DNA of 64,000 nt from Chlamydiota bacterium (GTDB taxonomy: Bacteria; Chlamydiota; Chlamydiia; Chlamydiales; RGXB01): assembly GCA_947494155.1 (NCBI GenBank), contig CANLTW010000002.1:1488-65487 (forward strand). Direction: 5' to 3'. Every line of letters begins with the position of its first letter. The stretch's first letter is position 1. Of the stretch, positions 1,174 through 56,287 are shown in pieces. The notes below the pieces were generated by a model. It did no database searches and was not told where the DNA came from. It saw only the letters and a program-made list of their open reading frames with translations. A program made the position numbers and the translations under genes.

Positions 1174-3197
1174 AATTAGCTTGGTGGCTTTTAGCTATCA
1201 CTCCCCTCTTTGCGCAGGTGAAGATCTATTTAAACGATCTTCAAGTTGTGAACGATCGTTACGAAACACATAACGGTGGGCTGTTCTTTTCTGATCAATT
1301 AAGCTTGCAGGCTCAAAATATCTCTTTCGACCGCGAAAACGGTATCCTTGAAGCAAGTGATGCGCTTTTATTTATCCTGAATGGGCAAATTTTTGTAGCA
1401 AACAGCTTATATATAGACCTAAAAAACCAAACCGGTTTTTTCGAGGATCTGACCTGTAAAATCAATTCCCTTTACATCGAGGCAAAAAAAACGGGTCTGG
1501 ATACCACCGGGGCGATCACTTTTGAAAGAGTGGAGATCACCCCTTTTGACCAACCCCCCTTTTTATTCTCGTTTCAGGTGCTTCAGGGTTCTATCGATAA
1601 AGAGAAGAATTTACAAGCGCAATCTATTTCTGCCCAGTTGATCGGAGCCCCTGTCCTATTTTACCCTCGAATTAAGTGGAATCTTGAACAGCTCCCGACA
1701 AAAGGCGTCCGCTATTTTTTCATGTACAACCAGGGTCAAAACCCCCTCTTTTCTTTTCGCTATCCTCTCATCGCAGAAAAAAATGCGAAGGCCCTTTTTA
1801 GATTTGATTATCGCGTCGGGAAGGGGTTTGGTACCGCCCTTGAGACCGACACCTCATTAAATAAGGATCGTATTCAGTACTGGACAGAAAATTTTTTCGA
1901 CTTCGATACATTTTACAACGATAATAATACCAAAATTTTGCAGGCACGCTATCGGTTCAAAGGGGTTTTAGACGCTTTCCCCAAAGACGAGGATCTTTTT
2001 GTTAAATTCCAATATGACGTACAATCTGATAGAAACCTCAGGCTAAACTTTTATGCGGCCCAATTCGAAGCGCGCGACGTAATGCGCACAGAAGGGCTGC
2101 TAGGAGTTAATAAATTCTTTTCTGAAAATCTTTTAGCCTTTCGTCCCAGAGCCAATACCTATGAGAGCTTAAGCCAGCAACTGCCCGCCCTAAAAATTCA
2201 GGTGGATCCGATTGTTTTTCCTTTTATAGGCCTCCATTTTTATAACACCTTTGATTTGAGCTACCAAGACTACACCTTCTCTAACAATTTGTACCAGGCG
2301 GTGCTCCCTTTTCATGCATCACGGTTACAAACAACGCAAAAACTAGACTGGCCACTAGATTTTGGACCGTTGAAAATCGAACCGGAGGGTCTATTTAGCG
2401 CTATCTACTACAACAACACCCCACTGCAATCTCAAGAGACGCTCGTCTATTTTAACTATGGGATCAAAGCCTCTACTTTGATCGAAAACAGGTCTAAACA
2501 AAACCGACATGTGATCCAACCCTATGTGGATTTTCACGCTTTTTCCACCCCCACCTTATCTCAAAAAGAGCGTTATATTTTCTCGCTAAATGATGGAATC
2601 TACCAGATTCAGGAGCTCAAAACAGGGGTTTTACAAACTCTTAGTTTCGATGCTCTCGATTCGATTTGCACATGGGATCTTTACGGCTTAAATTTCTTTA
2701 CCCAATCGACGTTTAATGTAACCTTCCCTAAATTAAAAAGCTTTTTTACAGTTGAAACCCCCTGGTGCACTTTTAAAAATATTTTTGGGTATAATTTCCA
2801 AAAAAACTCGATCGATATTTTCAATCTTGAATGGGGCTGGACATTCAAAAAAGATTTTGCCTTTCATCTAGACTGGCTCTATAGGGGCCCCTTTGAATGG
2901 AAAAAAGACGACAAAGAGAACTATCAGCTTGATATGGCCTATCCAATCGATACCCTTGCATTGACCCCCCTTTCGGACCGCAGAAATACTTTTATCAGCC
3001 GGCTTGAATGGCACTTTTTGCCTAATTGGACCGTCCGCTTTGAACACCATAATGGTTTTTGGCGAAGCACCGAGCCCCCCTATCTAGAGTTTCGCGCTGG
3101 AATCTCCACTGTCTACCGCTCCGGTTTAGACATCAATTTATCCTTCATTAAATCGATAAACGACATTCAAGTGCTTTTTAGCATGAACCTTGTTTAA
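1170..3197 (+). CDS. Outer-membrane LptD/OstA-like protein (putative LPS-assembly beta-barrel)
   Basis: It has an N-terminal signal peptide (MKLAWWLLAITPLFAQV). This is followed by an OstA-like beta-jellyroll pattern (..LQAQNISFDRENGILEASDALLFILNGQIFVANSLYIDLKNQTGFF). The rest is a long aromatic-rich region of alternating beta-strand character. The assignment is by pattern only. Confidence 0.45.
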   Translation: MKLAWWLLAITPLFAQVKIYLNDLQVVNDRYETHNGGLFFSDQLSLQAQNISFDRENGILEASDALLFILNGQIFVANSLYIDLKNQTGFFEDLTCKINSLYIEAKKTGLDTTGAITFERVEITPFDQPPFLFSFQVLQGSIDKEKNLQAQSISAQLIGAPVLFYPRIKWNLEQLPTKGVRYFFMYNQGQNPLFSFRYPLIAEKNAKALFRFDYRVGKGFGTALETDTSLNKDRIQYWTENFFDFDTFYNDNNTKILQARYRFKGVLDAFPKDEDLFVKFQYDVQSDRNLRLNFYAAQFEARDVMRTEGLLGVNKFFSENLLAFRPRANTYESLSQQLPALKIQVDPIVFPFIGLHFYNTFDLSYQDYTFSNNLYQAVLPFHASRLQTTQKLDWPLDFGPLKIEPEGLFSAIYYNNTPLQSQETLVYFNYGIKASTLIENRSKQNRHVIQPYVDFHAFSTPTLSQKERYIFSLNDGIYQIQELKTGVLQTLSFDALDSICTWDLYGLNFFTQSTFNVTFPKLKSFFTVETPWCTFKNIFGYNFQKNSIDIFNLEWGWTFKKDFAFHLDWLYRGPFEWKKDDKENYQLDMAYPIDTLALTPLSDRRNTFISRLEWHFLPNWTVRFEHHNGFWRSTEPPYLEFRAGISTVYRSGLDINLSFIKSINDIQVLFSMNLV

Positions 3198-16926: not shown

Positions 16927-17136
16927 ATACTGGTTTATCGCTAAAGTCCCCTTTAAATAGCAAAAAATATCTCGATCTTTTTTCTATTACCCATTCTCCT
17001 TTCAAAAAATTTGCCAGAGCTTTCACCTAATACACAGTGAATATCAGGAAAAAACCGGCCAAAATAATCCCGATAACCGCTATATTGGAATCTCGACACC
17101 TTGGGTTACCCCCTTAATAAAGGCTATTATTTTCCT

Positions 17137-20100
17137 ATGCCCCATGAAGAGATCATCCTCAAAAACGTTTGCGTTCACAACCTAAAAGGGGTAGATCTCA
17201 CCCTAAAAACAAACCAACTGATTGTTTTTGCAGGGGTATCGGGTTCGGGGAAATCGTCTTTAGCTTTCGACACCATTTATCTTGAAGGTCAAAGACGGTA
17301 CTTAGAGTCTTTAACTACCTTTGCTAAGCGCCATATTGGGGGATTAAAAAAACCCCAAGCCGATTTGATCCAGGGTTTAACCCCTTGCATAGCAATTGAG
17401 CAAAAAACTATCGGGCGAAACCCCAGATCCACTGTGGGTACCATGACTGGCATATACGATTTTTTACGAGTTTTGTATGCTCGGGTGGGGCTCCCCCGTT
17501 GCCCGGATTCTTTAGAGGTGCTCTCAAAACTTTCAAAAGAAAAAATTCACCAAATTATCCTTCAGGATCACTTGGGCGAGGCGATCTATATTTTGGCTCC
17601 GGTGATTGAAAACAAACGGACTGAGAGCAAAGAGTTGATCCAAGGTTTTTATAAAAAAGGATACACCCAAGCCCGTTTGAACGGCAAATGGATCGAACTT
17701 GATAGCGAAACCGAAATTGATCAGCACCAAAACACTCAGCTTCAGATTGTTGTAGATCGAATCAAAGTTGAGATCAAAGGGGAAAAAAGGCTGATGGAGG
17801 CAATTGACAACGCCTTGCGCATCGGCCAAAAGAAAATGTCAATTGTAGATAGAGATTCGGGTAAAGAGAGTTTTTTTTCGACCGAGAGCTACTCTTTTCT
17901 CTCCAAAAAAGGCTATCCGACACTTGAGCCTTTTCATTTTTCTTTTAATCATCCTGAGGGTATGTGTCCCGACTGCCAGGGTCTGGGGACAGAAAAAACC
18001 TTTCATTTAGAGGGGCTCATTGACTTTGAAAAAAGCATCCCCGAGGGTGCTCTAGATGCGATCACCCCTTTTGCAACCCAAATCTGGGGAAATATCTATA
18101 CCAACTTGGCTAAAATCGGCAGATTTAACCTAAATACCCCCCTTAAAGATCTCCCCGATAAAGCTAAAAAAATTCTTTTTGATGGTGTCGAAGAGAAATA
18201 CCTCACTATGACATTCATCCACCCCAAAACCAAGGAGAGATCAACCCAGTATATTTCCTGGAAAGGGATTAAGGATGAACTAAAAAAACGCTATAATGAG
18301 GCAAAAAGCGATCAGTACAAAGAGAAGCTTAAAGAGTTTGTAATCGATATCCCCTGTTCGGCATGTCAAGGCGCGCGCATTGATCGCTTCCCACGAGTGA
18401 CCCTTTTTCAAGGCAAGATGATCCATGAGCTTACTTTTTATTCCCTCTTAGAGCTCCAAGAATTTTTCTTAAATTGTACTCTAGATCCTTTAGACGTCCC
18501 GATTGCCCAGGAGCTGATTCGCGAAATACAAAGAAGACTCTTTTTTCTCATCGATGTCGGAGTGGGCTACCTCTCGCTCGAGAGAACCTCCTCCACATTA
18601 AGTGGTGGAGAGGCGCAAAGAGTACGGCTGGCCTCACAGTTAGGTCAGGGGCTGGTGGGAACGACCTATATCTTGGATGAACCGAGCATTGGTCTTCATC
18701 CAGCCGATAATCTCAAACTTTTAAAAACTTTGAGGAACCTTACCCAACAAGGTAATACCGTAATTGTTGTCGAACATGACGAGGAGACGATTCGCCATGC
18801 CGATACAATCGTCGATGTGGGACCCTACGGCGGCGAAGCAGGGGGACGAATTGTCGGTTTTGGAAAGGTTCAAGATCTGATGGAAGCTAAGGAATCGATT
18901 ACCGGAAAATATCTTAGTCGAAGCAGTCAGATTCCCGTCCCTAAAAAAAGGAGAAAACCCACAGGATTTCTTCAAATCAAAGGGGCATCCCACCATAATC
19001 TAAAAAATATCGATGTGGCCTTCCCCTTAGGTGTTTTTTGTGCCGTGACAGGGGTCTCCGGATCGGGGAAGTCCTCACTGGTAAATGATATCCTCTACCC
19101 TGTAGCGAGCAACCACTTGATGCAGTCGAGACTTTCTCATGGAGCTTATGCAGGGATAGAGGGGTTAGAGCAGCTCGATAAGGTGATCATGATCGATCAA
19201 CAACCTATTGGGAAAACCCCTAGATCTAACCCGGCAACCTACATCAAAGTCTTCGATGCCATCCGGGATTTATTTGCCTCCCTACCCGAAAGTCTGGCCT
19301 TAGGATTCAAAGCAGGACGTTTCAGTTTCAATGTCAAAGAGGGCTCCTGTCTTACCTGCAAAGGGATGGGTCTCATCCGGATTGATATGGACTTTTTGGA
19401 GGATAGCTGGGTGGAGTGCCCCCACTGTGCCGGAGAGCGATTTGATCCAAGAACTCTGTCCGTCAAGTTTAAAGGGAAAAATATCTATGAGGTTCTAGAA
19501 CTAAGTGTTGATGAGGCGCTTACCCTTTTTGCTGCAATCCCGATGATTGCCAAAAAACTCGAAACTCTTCAGCAAGTGGGTTTGGGCTATATGAAAATTG
19601 GCCAGTCATCCACCACTCTATCGGGGGGTGAAGCCCAGCGAATCAAGCTGGCCAAAGAGCTTTCTCGACCCAGCACCTCTAAAACGTTGTATCTTCTTGA
19701 CGAGCCCTCTACGGGTTTGCACTTTGATGACATCAAAAAAATGATCAAAATTCTAGAGAGGCTTGTTGATAAACAAAACACTGTTGTAGTGATTGAGCAC
19801 AATCTTGACCTGATCAAGATAGCCGACTGGATCATCGATTTAGGACCCAAAGGGGGAAAAGAGGGTGGCTTTATCATGGGAGAGGGCACCCCGGAGATGT
19901 TGAGTGAAAAAAGCTCTCTAACAGGGCAATTTGTGAAGGACGCCTTAAACGACTCTCTTCAATTTTACACGCATCAGGTGGTGAGCGATGAAAAACCTAT
20001 CACCCATATCGAGGTAAAAAATGCGACGCAAAATCACCTTAAAAATATCGATATTACGATCGAAAGAAATGAAATCACCGCCTTCACTGGCCCCTCAGGT

Positions 20101-22776
20101 TCAGGAAAGTCCTCGTTAGCGATCCAAACTATATTTGCTGAAGGGCAAAGGCGCTACTATGAGACTTTGAATGCCTATGCGCGTCAGTTCATAGAGCAAA
20201 GCCCCAAACCCAAAGTGGAATCCATTCAAGGGCTGTCTGCATCGATAGTGATCGAACAAAAACGGCACGCAGGAAATCCCCGCTCTACAGTCGGTACAAT
20301 CACCGAAATTTTAGATTACTTGAGGATTCTCTATGCCAAAGAGGGGATAGCCGTTTGCCCCGAGACAAAAGAGAGGCTTGTACATGTTACCAAAGAATAC
20401 ATAGTAAACGAACTGCTCGAAAAATATCCGAACGAGAAATGTATTGTCTTGGCCCCTATAGTCCCTAAAAAAGAGGAGAGCTACAAAGAACTTTTTGACC
20501 GCTACCAAAAAGAGGGTTTTTTGCGTGTACGCGTACAGGGGGTCATTTATGAACTTGCAGATGAGTACCCGACTCTTAGCGGCCTTAAAGAGAGCTGCGA
20601 ACTTGTGATCGATAGAATCCAGATCCACACGTCTGGAAAAAAAAGATTGCTGGATGCAATTGAAACGGCGACACAAATCGATCCAAGATCGATCCTTTTT
20701 GAACTCAAAGATGGAGCAAAGTCCAAAAAAGAGCTACCTCCCCTTCTCCATTATTACCTTGCTTTCTCCGCCCCCACCACAAAAAAAACCTACCCAAAAA
20801 TAGAACCGAAAACCTTTTCCTTCAATGCGGATGAAGGGATGTGCACAACCTGCGAAGGGATTGGATCTTTAAGCACTGTCGATATAAAAGAGGTGCCTAA
20901 GCTTTTCAAAGCGACTCTTAAAGATATTTTGGATCAGGTTCTCCATTTTGCCTACAATCCGATCCGATCGATTCTTAAGCTTTTACAGGATGCAGGTATA
21001 GATCCAAAAGAGCGGCTCGATAAAATGTCTTTGCCCCACCTCTCTTTTGTTTTGGATGGGGGAAAAATTCCGGGGTCTCCATTAAGATGGATCGGGCTCC
21101 ACCCCTTTTTTGAACGGCTTTTCAGTTTTGGCAAACCTCAGCAAAAAGAGGCTTTGTTACCCCTCTGTCAGAATAAACCCTGCCCCAGTTGCAAAGGGAC
21201 GAGATTAAATCCATTAGCCTCCAACGTCCATATCTCCTCGGTAACCTTACCCGCGCTTTTGCGCATGCCTATCGATGAAGCTTTCGTGTTTATCTCCCAA
21301 ATTCAATCTGAACAAGACTTAAGTGAGGTTCTAGACCCTATTCAAGAGAAGCTCAGGTTGCTGATCCAAATCGGGGTAGAGTACCTTTCGCTAGATCGGA
21401 CATCTTTAACCCTATCGGGTGGTGAGATCCAAAGGATCCATTTGGCAAGACAGTTGGGTGTTAACCTGAGCAATTGCCTATATGTCCTTGATGAGCCCAG
21501 TATAGGATTGCACCCTCACGATCACAAAAAACTTCTCCAAGCGCTAATACAACTCAAAAATGAGGGGAATACCCTGCTTTTGGTAGAGCACGATCCGATG
21601 ACTCTTGAAATCGCAAAAACTATTTTTGAGTTTGGACCCGAAGGGGGAGAAAAAGGGGGGCGAATTCTTGCAAAGGGGAAATTGGAAGAGCTAAAAAAAG
21701 ATCCTCATAGCATCACTGGAAAAGTCTTACGAAAAGAACTTTTTTACCATCGACAAAAAAAGCCGATCGACTCTTTTACCGATTGGATTCAGGTGGAGAA
21801 TGCCACTAAATACTCATTAAAAAAAGTCGATGTAAAAATCCCCAAAAACAGGATTACAGCCCTCACTGGTGTATCGGGATCGGGTAAATCGACACTGATG
21901 CACGAGATTTTAGCCCCTATTTTGAAAAAAACCACCTCTTCAAGAAAACGTTTCGATAGTTTTACTATAGATGGGTGTTTGATCTCGAATATCAAAGAGT
22001 TCAAGCATCTGATCCTTGTCGATCAAAACCCTATCGGAACCACCTCAAGAGCCGACATCTGCTCCTACACAGAGCTTTTAGGGCATTTTCGCTCTTTTTA
22101 CAGCGAGCTCAAGGAGGCGCAAGCCTATGGACTAATGCCTCGCCATTTTAGCCCGAACCACATTCAAGGTATGTGCACCGAGTGTTATGGTTTAGGGCAT
22201 ATCGAGGTAAAGCTCCAACTTCTCCCGCCGGCCATAAAAATCTGCCCACTTTGTCAAGGAAAAAGACTCTCTTTAATCGCCCTCAAAATCAAATACCAGG
22301 GTTTAAGCCTAGGGGATCTTTTCCATATGCGCGCCGTGGATCTAGTGGACATTTTCTCTTTTCATCCAAAAGTTTCTGCAACGTTACAGCTTTTGATTGA
22401 CGTGGGGATGGGTCACCTTAGAATAGGGCAAGAGGTGCAAACTCTGTCCCATGGGGAGTCGCAAAGGCTGAGATTTGTACGAGAGTTAATCACCCCAACA
22501 AAAGGGCCAAGCCTGATTTTTCTAGATGAACCCACAACAGGCCTGCATGATGCCGATATTTTGAAGCTTTTACCAATTTTTGACCGATTGATCGAGCGCG
22601 GAGACACCCTCCTCATCATTGAGCATAATATCACCGTTTTAAAAGAGGTGGATTACCTGATCGAAATGGGGCCTAAGGCAGGTAAAGAAGGGGGGAAAAT
22701 TGTGGCCTATGGCCCTTATGATGTATTTGTAAAAAAACAAAAAGGGATCACAGCTCCCTATCTTCTGGATATTTAA
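17137..22776 (+). CDS. uvrA: Excinuclease ABC subunit A, internally duplicated (two complete UvrA units in one polypeptide)
   Basis: It has four Walker A sites (GVSGSGKSSLAFDT, GVSGSGKSSLVNDI, GPSGSGKSSLAIQT, GVSGSGKSTLMHEI). It has four ABC signatures (3 x LSGGExQR plus LSHGESQR). It also has multiple CxxC zinc modules. I prefer the ATG at 17137 over the TTG at 17101 that opens the listed ORF. Confidence 0.9.
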   Translation: MPHEEIILKNVCVHNLKGVDLTLKTNQLIVFAGVSGSGKSSLAFDTIYLEGQRRYLESLTTFAKRHIGGLKKPQADLIQGLTPCIAIEQKTIGRNPRSTVGTMTGIYDFLRVLYARVGLPRCPDSLEVLSKLSKEKIHQIILQDHLGEAIYILAPVIENKRTESKELIQGFYKKGYTQARLNGKWIELDSETEIDQHQNTQLQIVVDRIKVEIKGEKRLMEAIDNALRIGQKKMSIVDRDSGKESFFSTESYSFLSKKGYPTLEPFHFSFNHPEGMCPDCQGLGTEKTFHLEGLIDFEKSIPEGALDAITPFATQIWGNIYTNLAKIGRFNLNTPLKDLPDKAKKILFDGVEEKYLTMTFIHPKTKERSTQYISWKGIKDELKKRYNEAKSDQYKEKLKEFVIDIPCSACQGARIDRFPRVTLFQGKMIHELTFYSLLELQEFFLNCTLDPLDVPIAQELIREIQRRLFFLIDVGVGYLSLERTSSTLSGGEAQRVRLASQLGQGLVGTTYILDEPSIGLHPADNLKLLKTLRNLTQQGNTVIVVEHDEETIRHADTIVDVGPYGGEAGGRIVGFGKVQDLMEAKESITGKYLSRSSQIPVPKKRRKPTGFLQIKGASHHNLKNIDVAFPLGVFCAVTGVSGSGKSSLVNDILYPVASNHLMQSRLSHGAYAGIEGLEQLDKVIMIDQQPIGKTPRSNPATYIKVFDAIRDLFASLPESLALGFKAGRFSFNVKEGSCLTCKGMGLIRIDMDFLEDSWVECPHCAGERFDPRTLSVKFKGKNIYEVLELSVDEALTLFAAIPMIAKKLETLQQVGLGYMKIGQSSTTLSGGEAQRIKLAKELSRPSTSKTLYLLDEPSTGLHFDDIKKMIKILERLVDKQNTVVVIEHNLDLIKIADWIIDLGPKGGKEGGFIMGEGTPEMLSEKSSLTGQFVKDALNDSLQFYTHQVVSDEKPITHIEVKNATQNHLKNIDITIERNEITAFTGPSGSGKSSLAIQTIFAEGQRRYYETLNAYARQFIEQSPKPKVESIQGLSASIVIEQKRHAGNPRSTVGTITEILDYLRILYAKEGIAVCPETKERLVHVTKEYIVNELLEKYPNEKCIVLAPIVPKKEESYKELFDRYQKEGFLRVRVQGVIYELADEYPTLSGLKESCELVIDRIQIHTSGKKRLLDAIETATQIDPRSILFELKDGAKSKKELPPLLHYYLAFSAPTTKKTYPKIEPKTFSFNADEGMCTTCEGIGSLSTVDIKEVPKLFKATLKDILDQVLHFAYNPIRSILKLLQDAGIDPKERLDKMSLPHLSFVLDGGKIPGSPLRWIGLHPFFERLFSFGKPQQKEALLPLCQNKPCPSCKGTRLNPLASNVHISSVTLPALLRMPIDEAFVFISQIQSEQDLSEVLDPIQEKLRLLIQIGVEYLSLDRTSLTLSGGEIQRIHLARQLGVNLSNCLYVLDEPSIGLHPHDHKKLLQALIQLKNEGNTLLLVEHDPMTLEIAKTIFEFGPEGGEKGGRILAKGKLEELKKDPHSITGKVLRKELFYHRQKKPIDSFTDWIQVENATKYSLKKVDVKIPKNRITALTGVSGSGKSTLMHEILAPILKKTTSSRKRFDSFTIDGCLISNIKEFKHLILVDQNPIGTTSRADICSYTELLGHFRSFYSELKEAQAYGLMPRHFSPNHIQGMCTECYGLGHIEVKLQLLPPAIKICPLCQGKRLSLIALKIKYQGLSLGDLFHMRAVDLVDIFSFHPKVSATLQLLIDVGMGHLRIGQEVQTLSHGESQRLRFVRELITPTKGPSLIFLDEPTTGLHDADILKLLPIFDRLIERGDTLLIIEHNITVLKEVDYLIEMGPKAGKEGGKIVAYGPYDVFVKKQKGITAPYLLDI

Positions 22777-24209: not shown

Positions 24210-27041
24210 ATGCTGCAAGGTATCAAAGGGTTTGTAGGGAGCACCACATCGCATCTTCTGACAGGTCTGGGTAGACAACTTGGAGGGCATATTGTGCAAC
24301 GTGTCGCCGGACCCGTACCAAAAGGTATGGAAGAACTTTTACAACTTTGTCAAACGACCCGCACACAAGAAGAGGTGCAACATCTTGCAGGAAGGATCCA
24401 AACTCTAACCCTAAACCCGCAAAATCTTGCCATAAAAAAAACCCTAGAGGGTTGGTACGCGTTAATTTTATCTGCTCAAAAGGAAGATATTCCCCAAATT
24501 TTGCAAAAAATCCAAAATGAAATAGAACAAACCATTCTCCTTCAGACTCCACTGATTGGACACATCTCCTCCCACATGAGCCAAATTCTCAATCAAGCTT
24601 TAAAAGTAGCACCCCCACATATTCTTGATGCGAAACAGCAGCTCTCTTTTAAAAATCGGCACCAGCCTTTTGACAAAGAGAATTTGCGCCAACAGCTTCT
24701 TTTGTGCAGAGATAAAGAGGTTTGGAGTTCTGAGCAAAAACAAATCTTGCAAATGGCAGTCGATTGCCTTTCCACTGATGAAGGGGTCGTAGATTGGCAC
24801 GGAGTACAACTCCTTTTGTCTCAAAAAGAGGCTGAGCTCAATGGCGCATTTGCGCAAAGCTCTGAAAATGTCCGTTGCAAAACACAGCTCCTTTTATCCG
24901 ATTGCCTCAGTACTGTCGGAACAGGGCTTTTCAAACAGGCCGATCCCCTCCGCACAAAGATAGATAACTGTATGGCTCTTTTGCGTAGCATTCTCAACTC
25001 TCAAAAGCCCCAGATGCACCAGCCTACTCTTATGGATACTCTTGAAAACCTGGTTCTGTTTTTAGAAGATGTTTTTCAAGATGACGTGCATTTTCAGGCC
25101 CATCTAAAAGAATTCCAAGAGCTTCTAGTCGAAAAAAATTCCCGAGAACTCCCACCAGAAAAATATTTTCAAAGACTGTATTTGAATCTACAGAAATTCC
25201 TCCCCTACTTTGAATCCTCTGGAGTCGCTGTTCAATTTTTTGAAACTACCTCATCGCTTTTCTTTGGAAATCATCAAGAAAGGAGAAAAGGGCTCCACCC
25301 CCTAGCGATTCCCTACAATTTTTCCCAAACCAATCTAATTGAGCTCCAAAATTCCCCTCGAAGGATCACCCCAAAATTAAAAGGAGTCCCCCTGTCTTTA
25401 GAGGCAGGAGGGGCTCAACAGGCAACAGGTTCTTTAGACGCCCCTCCTGTGAATCTCTCGTTCGAAATCAGATCTTTTCTCCAAGAGAACAAAACCTCCC
25501 TATACCTCCAGTTTGTGGGGAAAATGGTGGAAATTCCCCAAAACTTTTCCTCAAAAGAGAAAGATTTTACTAAGATTAGCAATGAAATATCGCTAAGCTT
25601 TATAGAGGGGAGCTGTAGAGTCCTACCCCCTCTAAAAGAGGTTTTAGCCAAGCGATTTGATAAGGTTTACGATACTCTTATCCAAAAAATCTCCAATTGC
25701 TGGGTACCTAAAATCTTAGAAAATCTAAAAGGGTTCGATGCAACGGGACAGGGTGCTGCTAATGTCAGCCCACTAAAAAATCTTATAAGAACAGTGAACC
25801 AGCTCTCAAGGGATCTAGATAGTTATGGCCAATCACAAACGGTCCTGATGAGGGAAGATTACCTTAAAGAGAGAAGGATTAACAACAAAAGAGGATTTTT
25901 TTCCTCTTTAAAGACAGGGTGGAAAATCGGGGGGTTTTTGACCGATTTTTTAGTTGAGGCTCTTAAAGTACAACCCACCAATCCCGTCAATAGAGTGAAA
26001 AAAATCCAAAATCCGATAACAGCCCCCTTTTCCAAAATACTTGACGTCACAATTGCTATAAGCAACTGGTTACTCAAGAAAGCCCTCTTGGCCACTCTTC
26101 GCTTAAGTTTGAGTTTTATTCCCTACTATCTGATCACCGAAAAAGTTTTAGATCATCTGTTAACTACACAACGATTGCAAAAAATGTATAGATCTTTAAC
26201 TGAGGCGGTTCTAGAGGATTTTCGACAGGGAAATAGAAGTCTTATTGATCTTGAGTTGGGAAAAAGGGTAGATTCCAAAGTCTCAAAAGAGCTGGTTAAA
26301 AGCTTGATTGGGCTCATCCCCAAAAATGAGGGGTGCGATATTTCCGGGCTCAAAGAGAATCCTTTTATGTTACTTCCCTCGATTGCAAGGGGATTTATCT
26401 ACGACAAAGCGACTGAGGGAGTCTGCATGCTATGGGAAAATATGATACACCCCAAGACGGGTAAAATGATGGAGACCTCCCTTGGTAACCTCTTAAAAAA
26501 GATTAATTCCAACACCAGTCCTCTCGATCTGGAGCTTAGTGTGCAAATACCCCTTCCTATTCAGGATATTGAGCATGCCCTAAGCACCTATATCGCTACA
26601 GAAATACTGAAACCAAAAGGGACAGCTGGCGAAGAGGAGATGTTTTTAAAACTCAAAGAACAGATTTTGGACTTACCCGATTATGATGATAATCCCTTCA
26701 ATTTTCAGCTGGTCTTCAAACAACTGGTTAAAGATATAATGGATGCTGGCCAACAAAAAAAACCTGTGATCTTTGGGAGCAACTACCACCGTGTTCTTCA
26801 CCATCTACAATTAGTTCACATATCTTTGGATTCCATGCAAAACCCGACCAAAAAAGTCGAAATTTTAAAAAAAGACGCACAAAACATACAATACGAACAC
26901 CCACTTGAGCCGCAGAAAATGCAGCATGGGGATGAAGCAATAGCTTTTGCTATCCATTTAGGAATGTATCAAATAAGGGAATGGCTTACAGACAGAGAAT
27001 TTTTCAAAAGAGTTCTCTACGATCAACTGCTCCCATCTTAA
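24210..27041 (+). CDS. Large hypothetical protein (943 aa), mostly helical, no family recognised
   Basis: A 943-codon open frame in a genome that appears, by eye, to be of moderate GC content. Codon usage resembles its neighbours. It is preceded by a 267-nt AT-rich intergenic region. No signal peptide and no recognisable motifs were seen. Confidence 0.6.
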   Translation: MLQGIKGFVGSTTSHLLTGLGRQLGGHIVQRVAGPVPKGMEELLQLCQTTRTQEEVQHLAGRIQTLTLNPQNLAIKKTLEGWYALILSAQKEDIPQILQKIQNEIEQTILLQTPLIGHISSHMSQILNQALKVAPPHILDAKQQLSFKNRHQPFDKENLRQQLLLCRDKEVWSSEQKQILQMAVDCLSTDEGVVDWHGVQLLLSQKEAELNGAFAQSSENVRCKTQLLLSDCLSTVGTGLFKQADPLRTKIDNCMALLRSILNSQKPQMHQPTLMDTLENLVLFLEDVFQDDVHFQAHLKEFQELLVEKNSRELPPEKYFQRLYLNLQKFLPYFESSGVAVQFFETTSSLFFGNHQERRKGLHPLAIPYNFSQTNLIELQNSPRRITPKLKGVPLSLEAGGAQQATGSLDAPPVNLSFEIRSFLQENKTSLYLQFVGKMVEIPQNFSSKEKDFTKISNEISLSFIEGSCRVLPPLKEVLAKRFDKVYDTLIQKISNCWVPKILENLKGFDATGQGAANVSPLKNLIRTVNQLSRDLDSYGQSQTVLMREDYLKERRINNKRGFFSSLKTGWKIGGFLTDFLVEALKVQPTNPVNRVKKIQNPITAPFSKILDVTIAISNWLLKKALLATLRLSLSFIPYYLITEKVLDHLLTTQRLQKMYRSLTEAVLEDFRQGNRSLIDLELGKRVDSKVSKELVKSLIGLIPKNEGCDISGLKENPFMLLPSIARGFIYDKATEGVCMLWENMIHPKTGKMMETSLGNLLKKINSNTSPLDLELSVQIPLPIQDIEHALSTYIATEILKPKGTAGEEEMFLKLKEQILDLPDYDDNPFNFQLVFKQLVKDIMDAGQQKKPVIFGSNYHRVLHHLQLVHISLDSMQNPTKKVEILKKDAQNIQYEHPLEPQKMQHGDEAIAFAIHLGMYQIREWLTDREFFKRVLYDQLLPS

Positions 27042-49959: not shown

Positions 49960-50892
49960 ATGATTACAAACTATATCAAACAGACCGAGCAGGACCAGTT
50001 CCAGGTAGTGGATGACCCCAAACCTGGCTGCTGGATTCATGTAGATATGGCTACTAATCAAGATATCACCACAATAGCCCATTTAATCAATATCGATGTA
50101 GCAGACCTCATAGACTGTATTGACCGCTTTGAGATCCCTCGCCTAGAAACTTTTGATGATGTAGCTATTGTTATCACCCGATATCCGTCTAAAACTACCA
50201 CGTCGACCGATATTGGATTATATACCACAACATTCGCAATGGTTTTGTCCAAAGACTATTTTATTACTATTTGTACCGAGAAAAGTTCTCTGGTAAAAAA
50301 TGTTGTCAATCGAAAGAGTGATCTATTGACGGCTCAAAAGACGCGCCTGCTTGTCCTTTTTTTAGGAAAAATTACCCAAGAGTATACTGTAAATATCAAA
50401 TTAATCCGCTCAAATGTCTTGCACCAAGAAAAAGATTTGGGTCAAATCGATTCAGATGATATTAATGCGATGACAATTTATGAAGAAAATCTTAACCAGT
50501 ATCTTTCTGCGCTTGTCCCGTTGCGCTCTGTCTTCGACCAAATTAGCTTAGGAAAGATTTCTTTATTGATAGAGGAGGATCAAGATCTTATTGAAGGGCT
50601 TGTCCATGCGATTCGACAGTCGGAAGATCTTTGTAAAATCAATATGCGCAGTTTAGCAAGGCTCCGTAACTCCTACCAAATCATTTTTACTAATCAGCTT
50701 AACAAAACGATCAAACTCTTGACCGCCTTGACGATCATTCTAAATATCCCCACTATGATTGCTAGTATTTACGGGATGAATATCAACCTCCCCGGCCAAG
50801 ACCTTGCTAATGCCTGGCTTTTTATTATGGTGATGATCTTTGGCGGAACGCTTGCCGGTTTTGTCTATTTTAGAAAAAATAAATGGCTCTAA
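49960..50892 (+). CDS. CorA-family divalent-cation transporter
   Basis: A cytoplasmic N-terminal domain is followed by two C-terminal TM helices. The signature YGMN (ASIYGMNINLPG) lies at the end of TM1. Confidence 0.75.
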   Translation: MITNYIKQTEQDQFQVVDDPKPGCWIHVDMATNQDITTIAHLINIDVADLIDCIDRFEIPRLETFDDVAIVITRYPSKTTTSTDIGLYTTTFAMVLSKDYFITICTEKSSLVKNVVNRKSDLLTAQKTRLLVLFLGKITQEYTVNIKLIRSNVLHQEKDLGQIDSDDINAMTIYEENLNQYLSALVPLRSVFDQISLGKISLLIEEDQDLIEGLVHAIRQSEDLCKINMRSLARLRNSYQIIFTNQLNKTIKLLTALTIILNIPTMIASIYGMNINLPGQDLANAWLFIMVMIFGGTLAGFVYFRKNKWL

Positions 50893-51070
50893 TCCTCAAA
50901 ACCCTCCTCATCGAAAAAAATTAAATCCTTTTTTGTTTAAAACAGTTACCTATAAAATACTCTCTTTAATTCCATCCATTTATTTAAACACCCATCTCCT
51001 ATTTTTAGTTCAATAGTAAAACGCACTTTCGAATTGAGACTTCTAAGATGAAATAGTCAAAAAAATCCTG

Positions 51071-53665
51071 CTAGGTAAGGGCAAAATAGCTGATAAACAA
51101 TGTGATGATAGACCAAACAGGCCAATAAAAATACCGAACATACAAAAAGAATCTCTCATCTTGCCCAATTTTTTGAATTAGGCTCATCGCTTGCACGACA
51201 ATAAGAAGTACCAATGAACCAATATAAACATTTTCAAGAAACGACAAGATTCTGTTTCCTAGGTATCCTCTAAAGCTCACGTACATCAGCAAGACGATAA
51301 ACATCACTGACCCCCATACCGGGATGAAAGTCTTGATATCATCACCCAGCTTCCTTGTAATAAAACTCTGGTACAAGATCGCAAGACCAATTAGCAAAGG
51401 GAGAAGATAGCAGGCAATTACGTGAACGATCCCCCTTTTAAAAACAAATTCGTATTGTAATATAGGGATCTCAATACCTTCTTTTTTGATATATTTACAA
51501 CCCGTTTTAACGAAATCAATCCCCTGAATCTGTAACCGGGATAGTTCCTCTAAATTTTCAAAATCGGGGACAAAAAGAATTTTTTCGTTCGATGCGATCT
51601 GCAACGGTAGTGTTAACTGCCTGGGATTAAAAGGGAACTCTTTAAATTCTGAGTCATCTATATAATCATAGTTAAAAAAATATTTCGGGGGTGATTCCTG
51701 ATTGCTTCTAAGGGTATTTACTCCAGCTATTGCCGTGTAGATATATAGGTCTGTTTTTTCGTCTATTTGTGAGGAAAAATAACCCGCTGCATTTACAATG
51801 TCTATCCCTTTAATCCAAAAACCATCAACCATAAGATTTACCGGTACCAACCTAAGCGGTTCCTCATGGAAAAGATCGTAAGCTTGTTTTATAGATTCTA
51901 CTTGGTTCAAGATCTCCTCTTTATTTGAAAGGACGCTCTTTTGTTCTTCCTTTATGCGATCTTGCAAAATATTAAAGGCGAATACTTGGTAAATTAATAC
52001 GCACAATAAAAAACCGAAGGAGGCAATCGGTAGTACTCTAAAAGAAAAAATCGTATCGAACTGGGTAAAAATCCAAAACAAAACGGAAAGGATAAACAGA
52101 GTGAAAAAAAACAGAAAATGGATTAAAAAAATCTGTTTTGAAAAAGCCACTTTTAACCCCGTTGAGCTAGTGATGAAGTTCCATTTAGCTGCTGGGATAT
52201 TTAACAAAAGGTCAGGATTTGTGGTGATCTGATATTGGTATAAAAAGTGCCCCTCCTGGTCGGTAATAGAAAAGGGTTGACTGTAGGTATGGACCAATAT
52301 TTCCAGAATATCATTGATCGTATTTCCCTCTACAACAATCGAGCATGAGCCTTGATTTCCAATATTTTTTTGGGTTGAGAAAATAAATATAGACCCAAGT
52401 ACGGGATCATTAATTGGCCCCTCAATTTTGAAGTCCTCTGTATATGGATTAGGGAGTAACGTGGTGGGGACCCAGTTGAATTTGTTAAGGGTTAGAGTCT
52501 CTTGATAAACCCCATTTAGAGGTTTTTCGTAAAAATTTACCGCTAAAATACCATACCTATTTAACTGCTCAAGAATTGCGTCATTGGGTCTATTCAACCC
52601 ATACTTTAAGGTAACAAAAGTTTCCAAAACACCTTTAAACTCTTCCAGATATTGGTTGATCTTTACAACAGCACTCCTCGCTGCAAAGTTAAAGGCAGAC
52701 TTTTGCGCTTCGACTGAATCTTTTTTCTCTTTTAAGTAGGCAATACCTAAATACCCTGCTGCACATCCAAGCAAAATGACCAAAAAAATCACCATATGGG
52801 AAAAAACGCTATAACACTTCATTATGCCTGTTATAGAGCAACTATTTTTAGACTCGCTGAAAGGGAGTACAAGACAGCTAATAAGCAAAAGAAATAGGAC
52901 AAACGCCTCGATATAAATCAGGACTGAGTAAAAAGAATAGCTTTCAAGTACAAACCCAAATTTTATATCTGGAAGGTAAAAACAAGCGTAATTTTTGGTG
53001 CCAATTAGACCTATACTCTCTAAAATCTTGTTTTCACCGCTAAGTGCCTGTTGAATAACGTTTGAGCTAACTTTTAGATTTCTGTCAAATTCAATTGGAC
53101 TTGATAACCCATCCTGATAAACATACATCGAGCTGCTGAAATAGTCGTTTTGCGTACCTTGTAAAAATTCCTCGATAAGGAGATCTGCTCGCATAAAACG
53201 AAAAAGGGCGTAGTTCTCGATTTTTTCATTTTTTTTCAAAGGATAGATATAGAAGATCTCGGGTTTAGCACGATTTAACCCACTTATTGTTGCCCACTGA
53301 GGTGTCTGAGAGAGGGGAGATATGAGGAGTAAATCATCTATATTTTTGGTAGAAGGAAGCTGATTAAATTGAGGATCGGTAGTCTTAATAAGCTGTCTAT
53401 TTGCGTCAAAAATGTAGATCGTTAGATTACACGGCAGCCTTGATGTGGGATCTTTAAAGGCTTTTTCAGCTAAAGAATTCAAAAAAACTTGCTTCGATTC
53501 TACGTTTTTATAGATTGTCTTCTGTATTAACAAAAAATTGTTTAGACATTTTTGCTGTTCCTTTTCCCTTTCGGCTTTAAAGGTAAAAACAAACACCCCT
53601 AAACCGATAGAAAAGGCGAGAATCCATCCACAAAATTGAACCTCCCATCTTTTTAGGAACCCCAT
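51071..53665 (-). CDS. 864-aa, roughly 9-TM protein: two Cache-like periplasmic domains followed by a C-terminal pLGIC-like module (short beta-sandwich plus M1-M4)
   Basis: Hydrophobic segments lie at about aa 12-28, 245-268, 287-310, 512-533, 544-566, 746-768, 781-800, 806-830 and 841-862. The C-terminal module (about aa 600-864, nt 51071-51868) shares motifs with the neighbouring pLGIC gene. Examples are FPFNPRQLTLPLQIAS, ILFVPD, QYEFVFKR and the M1 Pro in YLLPLL. The start overlaps the upstream binding-protein gene by 13 nt. Confidence 0.5.
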   Translation of the reverse strand: MGFLKRWEVQFCGWILAFSIGLGVFVFTFKAEREKEQQKCLNNFLLIQKTIYKNVESKQVFLNSLAEKAFKDPTSRLPCNLTIYIFDANRQLIKTTDPQFNQLPSTKNIDDLLLISPLSQTPQWATISGLNRAKPEIFYIYPLKKNEKIENYALFRFMRADLLIEEFLQGTQNDYFSSSMYVYQDGLSSPIEFDRNLKVSSNVIQQALSGENKILESIGLIGTKNYACFYLPDIKFGFVLESYSFYSVLIYIEAFVLFLLLISCLVLPFSESKNSCSITGIMKCYSVFSHMVIFLVILLGCAAGYLGIAYLKEKKDSVEAQKSAFNFAARSAVVKINQYLEEFKGVLETFVTLKYGLNRPNDAILEQLNRYGILAVNFYEKPLNGVYQETLTLNKFNWVPTTLLPNPYTEDFKIEGPINDPVLGSIFIFSTQKNIGNQGSCSIVVEGNTINDILEILVHTYSQPFSITDQEGHFLYQYQITTNPDLLLNIPAAKWNFITSSTGLKVAFSKQIFLIHFLFFFTLFILSVLFWIFTQFDTIFSFRVLPIASFGFLLCVLIYQVFAFNILQDRIKEEQKSVLSNKEEILNQVESIKQAYDLFHEEPLRLVPVNLMVDGFWIKGIDIVNAAGYFSSQIDEKTDLYIYTAIAGVNTLRSNQESPPKYFFNYDYIDDSEFKEFPFNPRQLTLPLQIASNEKILFVPDFENLEELSRLQIQGIDFVKTGCKYIKKEGIEIPILQYEFVFKRGIVHVIACYLLPLLIGLAILYQSFITRKLGDDIKTFIPVWGSVMFIVLLMYVSFRGYLGNRILSFLENVYIGSLVLLIVVQAMSLIQKIGQDERFFLYVRYFYWPVWSIITLFISYFALT

Positions 53666-54864
53666 TTATTCCCCCACTCTTTGTACCAGATGATCATCTG
53701 TTCCTGCCATTCCTTTTTAGTCTTTAAGGAGGGATAGGGTTCGGGTGGGATAGGATTAATAGTTCTCCATACAATCTGGGGCGTCTGTTTATGAAACACC
53801 TTTGCTAATATGATATTTCGATACAGATAAAAAGAGGTGTTAAATCCGATAATCCCTTCTGCTGCATGAATCCCCTGCCCATCAAGGACTTTTTTTAGAT
53901 TTACACGAGACCCATTTTTAGCCATTTCATAGGTATTTGCCCACATTTTTACCCCATTGTAGGCTATTTCCATAGGATCATTAATCACTATTTTTGGATC
54001 AATCCTATTACGAAGTCTTGCTAAAAACTCAAGGTTTATTTCCTCTTTAAGATTTTGAAAATAGCTCCAACATAAAAAATGATTTTGAAGCTCTACACTC
54101 CATGTCTGTATAAGATCTTCGGTAACACTTAATGAGATTATAGCCGTTTTCTTGAGTTGGTCATCATTTTCCAAAAGAGTGAAAAGATTACGATTCCCCT
54201 CCCCATTAATCAAATTAATTATTACATCAGGTTTAGCAAGTCGAATTTTGGCTACCGCTTGAGTAAAATTTTTTTCGCTTAAAGACACTAGCTCACTCCC
54301 AACAATTTCAGCCCCCTGACTTGGCATGTACAAACGTAAAATCTCTAGGGAGGCTTTTGGGTAGATGTAATCAGAACCGATAACATAAAACCTTTTGCCT
54401 ATATTTTTTAAGGCCCAGCTGGCCGCAGGTAAAAGCTGTTGGTTTGGGGCGACTCCTAAATATAAGATATGGGGAGAATCCTCTAACCCCTCAAATTGGA
54501 CAGGATAAAAAAGAATTCCTCCCCTTTTTTCTAAAACCTCGTTTACCGCCTTGCGACTTGCTGAAGTCCAGGTTCCAAAAATTGTAGTTGCCCCCTGGTC
54601 TAACAATCGATTCGCCCCAAGCGCAAACTGTACCGGGTCAGAGGCTCCGTCTTCAACTAGAGGCTCTACCAGCTCGCCATTTATCCCTCCCCCCTGATTG
54701 ATCTCATCAATCGCCGCTAAAGTAGCTAGTAGGACTGGAACCTCGCTTTGCGCCAAGTCTCCTGTCCGAGAATGGAGAATACCCACTTTGATGTTAGCTT
54801 TTATATAAAATGAATATATAAAAAATAATACAAAAAAGACCCTTAGTAAACGCTTGTGATGCAT
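53653..54864 (-). CDS. UrtA/AmiC-family (type 1) periplasmic urea/short-amide-binding protein, with no linked ABC transporter genes
   Basis: It has an N-terminal signal/anchor (LLRVFFVLFFIYSFYIKA). This is followed by UrtA-like motifs as I remember them. These are IKVGILHSRTGDLAQSE, AIDEINQGGGINGELVEPLVEDGASD, IFGTWTSASRKAV, LFYPVQFEGLE, YVIGSDYIYP and DPMEIAYNGVKMWA. Confidence 0.7.
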   Translation of the reverse strand: MHHKRLLRVFFVLFFIYSFYIKANIKVGILHSRTGDLAQSEVPVLLATLAAIDEINQGGGINGELVEPLVEDGASDPVQFALGANRLLDQGATTIFGTWTSASRKAVNEVLEKRGGILFYPVQFEGLEDSPHILYLGVAPNQQLLPAASWALKNIGKRFYVIGSDYIYPKASLEILRLYMPSQGAEIVGSELVSLSEKNFTQAVAKIRLAKPDVIINLINGEGNRNLFTLLENDDQLKKTAIISLSVTEDLIQTWSVELQNHFLCWSYFQNLKEEINLEFLARLRNRIDPKIVINDPMEIAYNGVKMWANTYEMAKNGSRVNLKKVLDGQGIHAAEGIIGFNTSFYLYRNIILAKVFHKQTPQIVWRTINPIPPEPYPSLKTKKEWQEQMIIWYKEWGNKWGS

Positions 54865-54990
54865 AACAACTCCCTTAAGACAGAGAAGATTTAAGCTTCA
54901 ATAGTTTTTTTTGAAAAAAATTTTATTAATTTACGCAAAAATTTTAGAACTGAATGCTCTAGATAAAAACAGCCATAGATTTTTCTTATC

Positions 54991-56067
54991 TTAACTGAAT
55001 GCCAAAACGGGCAACATAATATTGATCAATATATACCATACTCCGATGGTGATCCATGATGCCATATCAATCGCTTTAGAGAACTCTTGTTCATTTTTTC
55101 GCAGGTAAAAATATCCTGAAAGTAAAGTCGCAGCCACACAAATAGTAATTGTCAATAAACCAACCAAAGTCACTAAATCGGTTAATCCAAAATCTCCAGA
55201 TGGGGGCATCAATGCGTTGACCATATACGTATTTGCTACCGCACCAAAGTATGCCGCAGAGGGTATACCATACCTTGGGCCAGTATCTGAAGGGCGGATA
55301 AAAAAGCTACCCAAGGTGAGGAAAACACCCGCAAACATACCGATAAATAGTTTTATATAGAATCCAAACCCTACTCGTTTTAATCTTAGAGCAAAGTTAT
55401 ACTGACTATAAGTGGTATAGTCCCCCTCATTTAGCAGTGGATCTCCGTAATTTGTCTGGTAGGTATGAGGCTCTGAATATTGTGAGAAATTTTTAATAAC
55501 AAATCCGGGAACATTCAATCTAGGACTCTTGTTACTGGAAGAGTCAGGAATATAGACCAGTTTTGTGTCATCCAAGACCGCATCCTCTATCGAGATAGTG
55601 AGCACATGAGACTCTAAAGGCAGTAGCATCGTATTAAAAAAATTCGTAATTCTCGCTTCCACCCTGTAGCACTGATAATGTAAGCCCTCTGGACTAACGT
55701 AGCTATCCTCCAAAATTTTACTGTTTATTTTGCCATCAACTAAATAAAAGGCTTTACCAGGATCTAATCCATCTTCCCCTACCCATCTAAACCATACGTA
55801 ATAAGTAGCAATCCAGTAGGATTCTTTTATCGAGACCGTCTCTATACTGTCTAAGTATATGCCCGTGCTAACCTTTACAGCCCCCTTTTCATCTCTTTCA
55901 GGTGAAACTATTGAAGTTTCTTTTAATTGATCCAGTGCAATTTTGGATCCGTGACTTTTATTGATGATAACAACAGAAAAAAAACCTATCACTAAGTACA
56001 ATAGAGTAAGACCTATCACCAGAATTTTGATATATTTTTGTTGAGAACTGGAAATATTTTTGAACAT
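54991..56067 (-). CDS. Prokaryotic pentameric ligand-gated ion channel (GLIC/ELIC-type pLGIC) homologue
   Basis: An N-terminal signal/anchor helix is followed by an extracellular beta-sandwich pattern. That pattern includes VKVSTGIYLDSIETVSIKESYWIATYYVWFRW and a Cys-loop-equivalent LLPLESHVLTISIED. Next come the pre-M1 LRLKR, M1 through M3, a very short M3-M4 loop, and M4 (ASWITIGVWYILINIMLPVLAF). It aligns colinearly, by eye, with GLIC as I recall it (LTVNTGIYL..., YPFDSQTLHIYL, LRISRQYF...). Confidence 0.7.
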   Translation of the reverse strand: MFKNISSSQQKYIKILVIGLTLLYLVIGFFSVVIINKSHGSKIALDQLKETSIVSPERDEKGAVKVSTGIYLDSIETVSIKESYWIATYYVWFRWVGEDGLDPGKAFYLVDGKINSKILEDSYVSPEGLHYQCYRVEARITNFFNTMLLPLESHVLTISIEDAVLDDTKLVYIPDSSSNKSPRLNVPGFVIKNFSQYSEPHTYQTNYGDPLLNEGDYTTYSQYNFALRLKRVGFGFYIKLFIGMFAGVFLTLGSFFIRPSDTGPRYGIPSAAYFGAVANTYMVNALMPPSGDFGLTDLVTLVGLLTITICVAATLLSGYFYLRKNEQEFSKAIDMASWITIGVWYILINIMLPVLAFS

Positions 56068-56287
56068 GCTAATTTTTCTCTTTTTAAAAACGGCCAGTTT
56101 TTCAAGGCTCTATTTTTTAAATAAGGTCTTTATGCCACTAATTGTCTTTCTCTTAAAACATGGTAATAAAACCTGCAATATTTTTATTTTCATGAATTTT
56201 TTACGAAAAAAACTCATTTGGAAAATTTATGCAATATCAAGTAACTTGTTAAATATCTCATTTTTAATTTGAACAAAATAGACTAAA

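Follow-up and report, generated by a model that had tools for sequence, protein, structure and literature searches.

A divergent ligand-gated ion channel gene in a chlamydial genome, with a predicted non-classical pore

Within a 64,000-nucleotide stretch of genomic DNA from a Chlamydiota bacterium (GenBank assembly GCA_947494155.1, contig CANLTW010000002.1, positions 1,488 to 65,487 of the forward strand; hereafter the window), sequence profiles and a structural model identify the gene at 54991..56067 on the minus strand as a complete gene for a genuine but very divergent pentameric ligand-gated ion channel (pLGIC, or Pro-loop receptor) subunit of the Cys-less prokaryotic type. The channel is an added member of a known superfamily, lying within a divergent clade, and its closest solved native relative is GLIC. 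The open reading frame (ORF) is intact, starts with ATG and encodes 358 amino acids (coordinates include the stop codon), and its start codon is backed by the conserved N-termini of three orthologues (MFKNLSS, MLKNLSS and MFSGLSI). The assignment draws on the ORF list, on family and control profiles, on Foldseek comparisons and on the ratio of nonsynonymous to synonymous substitution rates (dN/dS). Taken as a whole, a divergent stand-alone chlamydial pLGIC with the gating route and the non-classical pore proposed here is, in our judgement, a likely best explanation of these data.

Searches with the single channel sequence are nearly blind to this relationship, and taken by themselves they speak against it: Pfam gave no match, phmmer against the Protein Data Bank (PDB) returned nothing relevant, and in NCBIfam the LIC and LGIC_1 models were matched only below threshold (E of about 3e-4 to 9e-4, 19-20 bits against cut-offs of 280-500; for LIC, 19.9 bits against 280). 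Profiles were therefore needed. A homologue search gathered 68 clusters, mostly of 366-aa 'hypothetical proteins', and in the most distant of them (P0063 and P0065-P0068) Pfam recognises Neur_chan_LBD or Neur_chan_memb. A profile built from 32 of these homologues matched GLIC in the PDB over its full length at E values of 1e-24 to 1e-26, and its best native match was GLIC, with E down to 2e-24. Because Pfam-positive rows were among the 32, the profile was rebuilt without them as a check on circularity; the control profile, made of 25 close homologues of which none is Pfam-positive by the precomputed Pfam column, retained the GLIC match at E values of 4e-14 to 1e-11. With a profile of the wider clade the GLIC match had an E value of 1.7e-25. 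The initial annotation, made from the sequence alone, had read the gene as a pLGIC, and the profile search bears this out.

The predicted fold has the order that the same annotation had expected, a beta-sandwich followed by four helices. In an AlphaFold2 (AF2) monomer model built on the 32 homologues (mean predicted local distance difference test score, pLDDT, of 86; predicted template modelling score, pTM, of 0.75), an N-terminal helix (residues 7-51) and a poorly modelled linker (47-57) precede the beta-sandwich (64-231), after which come helices at residues 235-256, 262-286, 295-323 and 327-357, the last two of them, M3 and M4, joined by only three residues, in keeping with the minimal M3-M4 loop originally described. 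Foldseek placed the model closest to GLIC, the glycine receptor (GlyR), the GABA-A receptor and the glutamate-gated chloride channel GluCl (E of about 1e-17, TM-scores of 0.7-0.8); against GLIC the E value was 4e-18 and the TM-score, normalised to GLIC, 0.78-0.82 at 18% identity. In all, 1107 PDB chains matched at E<=1e-3, and among the 50 matches listed all were pLGICs.

The features of the family follow one another along the gene in the order first noted, namely a beta1-beta2 region, a Cys-less loop, pre-M1 basic residues and four transmembrane helices, all found in the translation or the model. The predicted periplasmic ligand-binding beta-sandwich (55375..55878, minus strand, as are all features of the channel given here) is delimited by the AF2 strands and aligns to residues 9-192 of the GLIC extracellular domain (ECD); it opens with VKVSTGIYLDSIETVSIKESYWIATYYVWFRW (residues 64-95 of the translation). 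The cysteine-free equivalent of the Cys-loop, the Pro-loop LLPLESH (residues 148-154, 55606..55626), aligns to GLIC Y119-P120-F121-D122 and lies within LLPLESHVLTISIED (residues 148-162), with no cysteine nearby. Loop C is a hairpin, HTYQTNYGDPLLNEGDYTTYS (residues 201-221, 55405..55467), placed by hmmalign against GLIC and ELIC and by its conservation in the clade. M1 (residues 235-256, 55300..55365) has G243, aligned to GLIC P204, at the site of the kink proline; the M1-M2 loop and the pore-lining M2 take up residues 258-287 (55207..55296), in a register anchored by R265 (0') and P288 (23'); M3 (residues 295-323, 55099..55185) is taken from the AF2 model and aligns with M3 of GLIC and GlyR; and M4 (residues 327-357, 54997..55089) is defined by AF2 and by HMMER alignments, in which the conserved D334 pairs with the Asp that starts M4 of GlyR.

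The most conserved positions of pLGICs have been tabulated by Jaiteh et al. (2016, Table 1; PMC4795631), and we located them in the channel by aligning GLIC and ELIC to the family hidden Markov model with hmmalign. In the GLIC and ELIC sequences used, the landmark residues reproduce the canonical numbering, and the counts given per column cover up to 61 close relatives and 150 members of the wider clade. The Pro-loop proline (GLIC P120) is P150, a Pro in 59 of the 59 close relatives aligned at this column. The acidic residue of the loop (GLIC D122) is E152, Glu being a 3% variant at this position (PMC4795631), and the pre-M1 arginine (GLIC R192) is R231, within the basic stretch LRLKRVG; by this alignment both members of the salt-bridge pair are retained. 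W95 stands at the position of GLIC W47, and the core aromatic listed under 'beta9' in the table of Jaiteh et al. (GLIC W160) is F189. The M2-M3 proline (GLIC P247) corresponds to P288, the basic residue at 0' of M2 is R265 and the residue at 9' is F274, and all three are invariant among the close relatives, as are N14' and Y16'. Phe at 9' is a minority state, found in 13% of pLGICs (PMC4795631).

Two others, among the seven most conserved in pLGICs, are not canonical and count against the assignment. The aromatic before the loop proline (GLIC Y119) is replaced by L149, a site occupied by V, L, I or A in the close family and by F or Y in 131 of the 150 wider-clade members, and the kink proline of M1 (GLIC P204) is replaced by G243. 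The latter proline is conserved in 77% of pLGICs, with Gly in 5% (PMC4795631); all 61 close relatives have Gly there, and in the wider clade Gly or Ala occupies the site in 104 of 150 members and Pro in only eight.

The comparison with GLIC itself (Gloeobacter violaceus, proton-gated, PDB 3EAM) can be drawn closely. Both proteins have two domains, no Cys-loop cysteines and no intracellular domain; their beta1 strands are nearly identical (TGIYL), and they share the Pro-loop proline, the pre-M1 arginine and the M2-M3 proline. At the same time, GLIC has E222 at -2', P204 in M1, isoleucine at 9', a short loop C and an M1-M2 loop shorter by two residues, whereas the channel has G263, P264 and R265 at -2', -1' and 0', G243 in M1, F9' and a loop C longer by about ten residues, together with an N-terminal hydrophobic helix for which the mature GLIC chain, as aligned here, has no counterpart.

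Many of these departures belong to a whole group of proteins: the channel is part of a large bacterial pLGIC clade that is mostly missed by Pfam. When 1.84 billion cluster representatives were scanned in full with HMMER, 1535 of them (counted as clusters at 50% identity) proved to be relatives at E<=1e-3, with 780 passing E<=1e-10 and 151 passing E<=1e-30. Among 48 sampled members, Pfam gave a weak Neur_chan_LBD match in 16 and Neur_chan_memb in one, and the source names seen were all 'hypothetical protein'. The clade is marked by Gly or Ala at the M1 proline site, P(-1')-R(0'), small residues at 2', 6' and 13', Phe at 9' (136 of 150 members), the loop B pair E161-D162, and a loop C some ten residues longer than that of GLIC, with Y203 and G208-D209-P210. 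Members of the clade, such as P0019 (Polaromonas sp.) and P0061 (Chloroflexota bacterium), are 34-67% identical to the channel over the full length and have in common with it the N-terminal helix, the M1 glycine, P-R at -1'/0', F9', the Y..GDP of loop C and the E-D of loop B. The chlamydial group (the window, L001, P0002 and P0003) differs from the 366-aa group in lacking a VEPGKTPPD linker insert and in having LPLE rather than VPLD in the Pro-loop. In a neighbour-joining tree (no bootstrap), the window protein groups with P0002 and P0003; two small groups, P0010/P0034 and P0006/P0043, are sister to this one, and all of these together have as their sister the Polaromonas-type 366-aa group, in which the chlamydial group is not nested.

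Some non-chlamydial members (L002 and L010-L012) carry paralogue pairs, whereas the window has a single copy. On L002 (8001-10216) the paralogues are in tandem, 33% identical, with genes overlapping by one base; on L010 (340-4339), L011 (1789-5788) and L012 (350-4350) two paralogues flank a 530-aa rhodanese-domain protein. Such pairs hint at heteromeric channels or at a sulfur-related context.

Of the 187 clade members whose N-terminus is complete, 167 have a hydrophobic N-terminal segment, a feature on which the initial annotation was silent. In the channel it spans residues ~15-36 (55960..56025), as judged from the AF2 model, hydropathy and the periodicity of conservation: the modelled helix has a pLDDT of 93-94 over residues 11-30, its best 19-residue window reaches a Kyte-Doolittle value of 2.74, and conservation in the close family repeats at 100 degrees, the strongest angle tested (permutation p ~1e-4). 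No A-x-A cleavage motif is visible at this helix. A single conserved face fits a retained, packed transmembrane helix better than a cleaved signal peptide, and we believe that the segment is probably an uncleaved membrane anchor, a fifth transmembrane helix that we call M0.

How might such a subunit work? As we envisage it, five copies would assemble in the chlamydial inner membrane, with the beta-sandwich domains facing the periplasm and the four-helix bundles enclosing a central pore whose wall is M2. At the subunit interfaces a small periplasmic ligand would bind, under the long loop C and beside E161-D162 of loop B, and the resulting movement would be relayed through the Pro-loop (P150 and E152) and the pre-M1 R231 to M2, opening a hydrophobic gate formed by F274 (9') and Y281 (16'). 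For this protein we infer the pentamer, the gating, the class of ligand, the selectivity and the retention of the N-terminal helix alike. The long, conserved loop C speaks for a genuine orthosteric ligand and against gating by protons alone. In ELIC (Dickeya/Erwinia, amine-gated), residues E131, Y175, F188, Y38 and F133 form what we take to be the amine-agonist site. E131 corresponds to E161 of the channel, a Glu in 140 of the 150 clade members, and Y175, F188 and Y38 correspond to Y207, Y220 and Y90. This match makes a cationic amine our leading guess for the ligand, by analogy and with low confidence, since the cation-pi residue F133 is replaced by A163 and the alignment of loop C is uncertain, both of which tell against it. 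ELIC and the channel also share Arg at 0' and a bulky aromatic at 16' (F247 and Y281, respectively); ELIC differs in having Glu at -1', Leu at 9', an FPFD Pro-loop and the M1 proline.

In its pore the channel departs from the prokaryotic pLGICs of the cation-selective GLIC/ELIC/DeCLIC type, in which a ring of Glu or Asp lies at -1' or -2'; the channel lacks such a ring. The stretch from just before M2 to its middle, which overlaps TGPRYGIPSAAYFGAV (residues 262-277 of the translation), reads D261 (-4'), T, G263 (-2'), P264 (-1'), R265 (0'), Y, G267 (2'), I, P, S, A271 (6'), A, Y and F274 (9'), and the C-terminal half continues with G, A, V, A278 (13'), N, T, Y281 (16'), M, V, N284 (19') and A285 (20'). 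The pre-M2 filter is thus D-T-G-P-R, neither the P(-2')-A(-1')-[R/K](0') motif of anionic receptors (PMC4795631, PMC549065) nor the cationic G-E-[KR], and neither -1' nor -2' is Asp or Glu; an acidic filter has been reported in all known cation-selective pLGICs (PMC9897478). At -2', Asp is found in 81 of the 150 members of the wider clade (as D-P-R), and Gly or Ser in 57 of the 61 members of the window's subfamily; on these alignments, the acidic ring at -2' has been lost specifically in that subfamily. G-P-R at the cytoplasmic mouth in place of an acidic ring makes it unlikely that the channel is a classical cation-selective pLGIC.

Comparison with anionic Cys-loop receptors (GlyR alpha1 and alpha2, GluCl alpha, GABA-A) leans the same way. 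Like the channel, they lack an acid at -1' and -2' and follow the 0' Arg with x-G-[IL], and hmmalign sets the M1-M2 loop against that of GlyR alpha1 with no gap, the loops of GLIC and ELIC being shorter by two residues. In three independent full-length profiles, GLIC chimeras carrying the transmembrane domain (TMD) of GlyR or GABA-A score above GLIC. A TMD-only profile is headed by anionic TMDs (a GLIC-GlyR chimera at 3e-4, GluCl at 2e-3, GlyR alpha2 at 6e-3, and GLIC at 8e-3 and weaker), the alignments to anionic receptors cover M1 to M4 and those to GLIC only M2 to M4, and no nicotinic, 5-HT3 or ELIC chain is found in the top 60. The channel differs from the anionic receptors in having G-P-R instead of P-A-R, no Cys-loop cysteines, no intracellular loop and a net-negative ECD; its 2', 6' and 13' residues are Gly, Ala and Ala where theirs are rich in Thr and Ser, and its 9' residue is Phe where theirs is Leu. 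At 21-24 bits the likeness is weak, and either convergence or an ancestral state could lie behind it. The initial annotation had called the segment before M2 anion-like. What stands of that description is the lack of acid at -1' and -2', the GlyR-like loop length and the TMD ranking; the motif itself is a different one, and the crude charge of the ECD and the Asp at -4' weigh against it. On present alignments the channel may be anion-preferring, a tentative reading to which we give somewhat less than even confidence, while a weakly selective pore seems to us unlikely. The fuller proposal, that these are the first anion-permeable prokaryotic pLGICs, through loss of the -2' Asp, and that their subunits have five helices with M0 packed on the TMD, is more doubtful still.

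An ordinary cation-selective channel like GLIC or ELIC, which would owe its selectivity to D261 at -4' and a net-negative vestibule and in which the sign of the permeant ion would not depend on G-P-R, is a contender that we take seriously while judging it rather unlikely. So far as we know, the prokaryotic pLGICs characterised to date are all cationic. The residue at -4' is Asp or Glu in 59 of 61 close relatives, although conductance in nicotinic receptors depends only slightly on the -4' ring. The ECD of the channel has a crude net charge of -6, near those of GLIC (-5) and ELIC (-6), within a close family whose median is +3 (range -9 to +6). Since Asp stands at -2' in the greater part of the wider clade, the ancestral state was probably cationic. 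These points weigh against an anion preference, as do the position of the filter proline, one residue later than in P-A-R, the occurrence of Pro-Arg as a signature of the whole clade rather than of anion channels, the small margin by which anionic TMDs outscore GLIC (24 against 18-19 bits), and the statement of Jaiteh et al. that the motif is insufficient to predict selectivity in prokaryotes (PMC4795631). That prokaryotic members would include both selectivities was already the expectation of Tasneem et al. (PMC549065). What a cation-selective reading must accommodate is the missing acid at -1' and -2' and the lean of both loop length and TMD ranking towards the anionic branch.

A different kind of alternative holds that the gene is a decaying or non-conducting relic, either transferred recently without a function or encoding a pore that never opens, and another that it is one part of a sensory module with the two genes downstream of it. 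A relic would be consistent with the absence of the channel gene from the syntenic contig L007, with a GC content of 0.37-0.39 at 50001-58000 (the region of the 864-aa, binding-protein, channel and 269-aa genes) that is lower than the 0.40-0.47 in the rest of the window, and with the bulky F9' and Y16' rings lining the pore. The channel gene is under purifying selection, however: four chlamydial lineages, 62-79% identical, all keep an intact ORF, and dN/dS is 0.10 against the 79%-identical L001, 0.145 against L009 and 0.10-0.15 among chlamydial orthologues, with synonymous sites near saturation. The dN/dS values lead us to reject a pseudogene or relic; all the coupling residues are conserved, F9' is the known minority state noted above (PMC4795631), ELIC has Phe at 16', and we regard a relic as exceedingly improbable. 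In the module, a periplasmic binding protein similar to UrtA and AmiC, encoded next downstream on the same strand (403 aa, 53653-54864, minus strand), would present urea, an amide or an amino acid to the channel, to the 864-aa polytopic membrane protein that follows (51071-53665, minus strand), or to both. The order of channel, binding protein and 864-aa protein on one strand is repeated in L001, no terminator-like site was found in the 126-nt gap between the channel and binding-protein genes (54865..54990), and there is a parallel in the fusions of type I periplasmic binding proteins (PBP-I) with pLGICs and in the operons of bacterial pLGICs with PBP or Cache proteins documented by Tasneem et al. 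(PMC549065). Yet L007 keeps the binding protein and an 848-aa counterpart of the large protein without the channel, and L009 has the reverse; the binding-protein gene shares 13 nt with the 864-aa gene but is set apart from the channel gene by 126 nt; and in the window, L001 and L007 alike, with the channel gene or without it, conservation extends over ~70 nt upstream of the binding-protein start, the last part of that spacer. In other taxa, moreover, homologues of the channel have unrelated neighbours. We therefore consider a shared module distinctly improbable.

A stand-alone channel accords better with L007, which has the neighbours without the channel gene, and with L009, which has the channel gene without those neighbours. 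Together the two contigs indicate that the gene is an independent, accessory unit, and from these gene orders we take it to be a separate transcription unit and not a core chlamydial gene; it is, on the same comparison, dispensable in at least one syntenic relative, L007. The description of the channel as stand-alone in the initial annotation was upheld in this sense, and no extra sensor domain is fused to it. In contrast to the binding-protein-coupled pLGICs of Tasneem et al., the channel has no conserved PBP fusion or operon. A conserved operon with the binding protein was considered and rejected on the evidence of L007 and L009, adjacency being confined to the window and L001. The promoter and terminator scan of the region was uninformative, as promoter-like sites were fewer than in shuffled sequence.

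Whichever ion its product may conduct, the channel gene points to a large, under-annotated bacterial clade that profile databases mostly miss. This clade departs from the textbook family three times over, in the missing M1 proline, in the Phe at 9' and in the conserved N-terminal helix, and one subfamily of it is without the acidic selectivity ring. No physiological role is known for any prokaryotic pLGIC (PMC4795631). Should the channel prove anion-permeable, it would be the first such pLGIC from prokaryotes and would bear on anion selectivity outside eukaryotes; it also raises the question of whether the change from Asp to Gly at -2' is enough to switch selectivity. If the proposed gating holds as well, a host-derived periplasmic amine could change the membrane potential of an intracellular chlamydia. 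A pLGIC from Chlamydiota is not listed in the family surveys (PMC549065, PMC4795631), and a full-text literature search for the combination found none. The chlamydial angle is nonetheless modest, for the gene is accessory, present in some syntenic relatives and absent from others, and the metagenome-assembled genome (MAG) is environmental. Many environmental chlamydiae are not strongly reduced, and the premise of the initial annotation that a reduced, obligate intracellular genome would keep such a channel only for a specific function found no support here.

The chlamydial origin of the DNA, as the initial annotation had it, is supported by NCBI MAGs in which proteins identical or more than 90% identical to those of the contig bear the names Chlamydiia, Chlamydiae or Chlamydiota bacterium. 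The chlamydial histone-like protein Hc1 is encoded on a related contig, and the genes of the window include cytochrome bd and other housekeeping genes. A 1891-aa UvrA-like ORF with duplicated ABC ATPase modules lies at 17101-22776 on the plus strand; a double-length UvrA is presumably typical of chlamydiae.

The two genes downstream of the channel merit description in their own right. The binding protein matches Peripla_BP_5 at 9e-98 and TIGR03407 at 309 bits, below the cut-off of 493. For the 864-aa protein there was no match in Pfam, the PDB or NCBIfam, and only eight homologue clusters were found. The binding-protein and large-membrane-protein pair recurs on L006 and L007, two related contigs of the same group. 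On neither of these, nor in the window, do urea ABC transporter genes adjoin it, and it may represent an undescribed type of sensor or transporter that depends on a binding protein. The C-terminal part of the 864-aa protein (51071-51900, minus strand, residues ~600-864) was also considered as a second pLGIC, on a likeness seen only by eye in FPFNPRQLTLPL (FPFNPRQL), a conserved Arg and four helices. This idea is unsupported: hhalign against the pLGIC family gave E 0.12 and a probability of 0.5%, hmmsearch bits were near or below zero, there was no PDB match, and the AF2 model of the protein (pLDDT 44) is too poor to use.

On one side the locus is flanked by a 269-aa gene (56288-57097, plus strand) and the genes for pyruvate dehydrogenase E1 alpha, E1 beta and E2, and on the other by CorA (49960-50892, plus strand), LpxD, OmpH (assigned from synteny with L007) and BamA. 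A scan of contigs for related loci found one only. L001, whose channel is 79% identical, has the same gene order, and its contig ends inside the binding-protein gene. L007 is syntenic, with pyruvate dehydrogenase genes, a 268-aa gene, the binding protein, the 848-aa protein and CorA, and in L009 the channel gene (62% identical) directly abuts CorA (98.7%). The interval from CorA to the 269-aa gene (49960-57097 in the window) varies in gene content among related chlamydial contigs, and the 269-aa gene is conserved beside the locus in L001 and L007. Outside the chlamydiae, on L008 (401-2862), an AA_permease gene (453 aa) ends 21 nt upstream of a 67%-identical homologue of the channel on the same strand, and the two may form an operon tied to amino-acid or amine uptake.

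CorA itself is 99% identical at the amino-acid level to the L007 and L009 copies, among neighbouring proteins that are 50-74% identical. Recent recombination at CorA was considered and rejected, because nucleotide identity is only 80-84%; a protein so conserved over DNA so diverged indicates strong constraint. Elsewhere in the window, ORFs without a Pfam match lie at 1170-3197 (675 aa), 24210-27041 (943 aa) and 30190-31917 (575 aa), all on the plus strand, as does the 269-aa gene beside the channel, which likewise has none.

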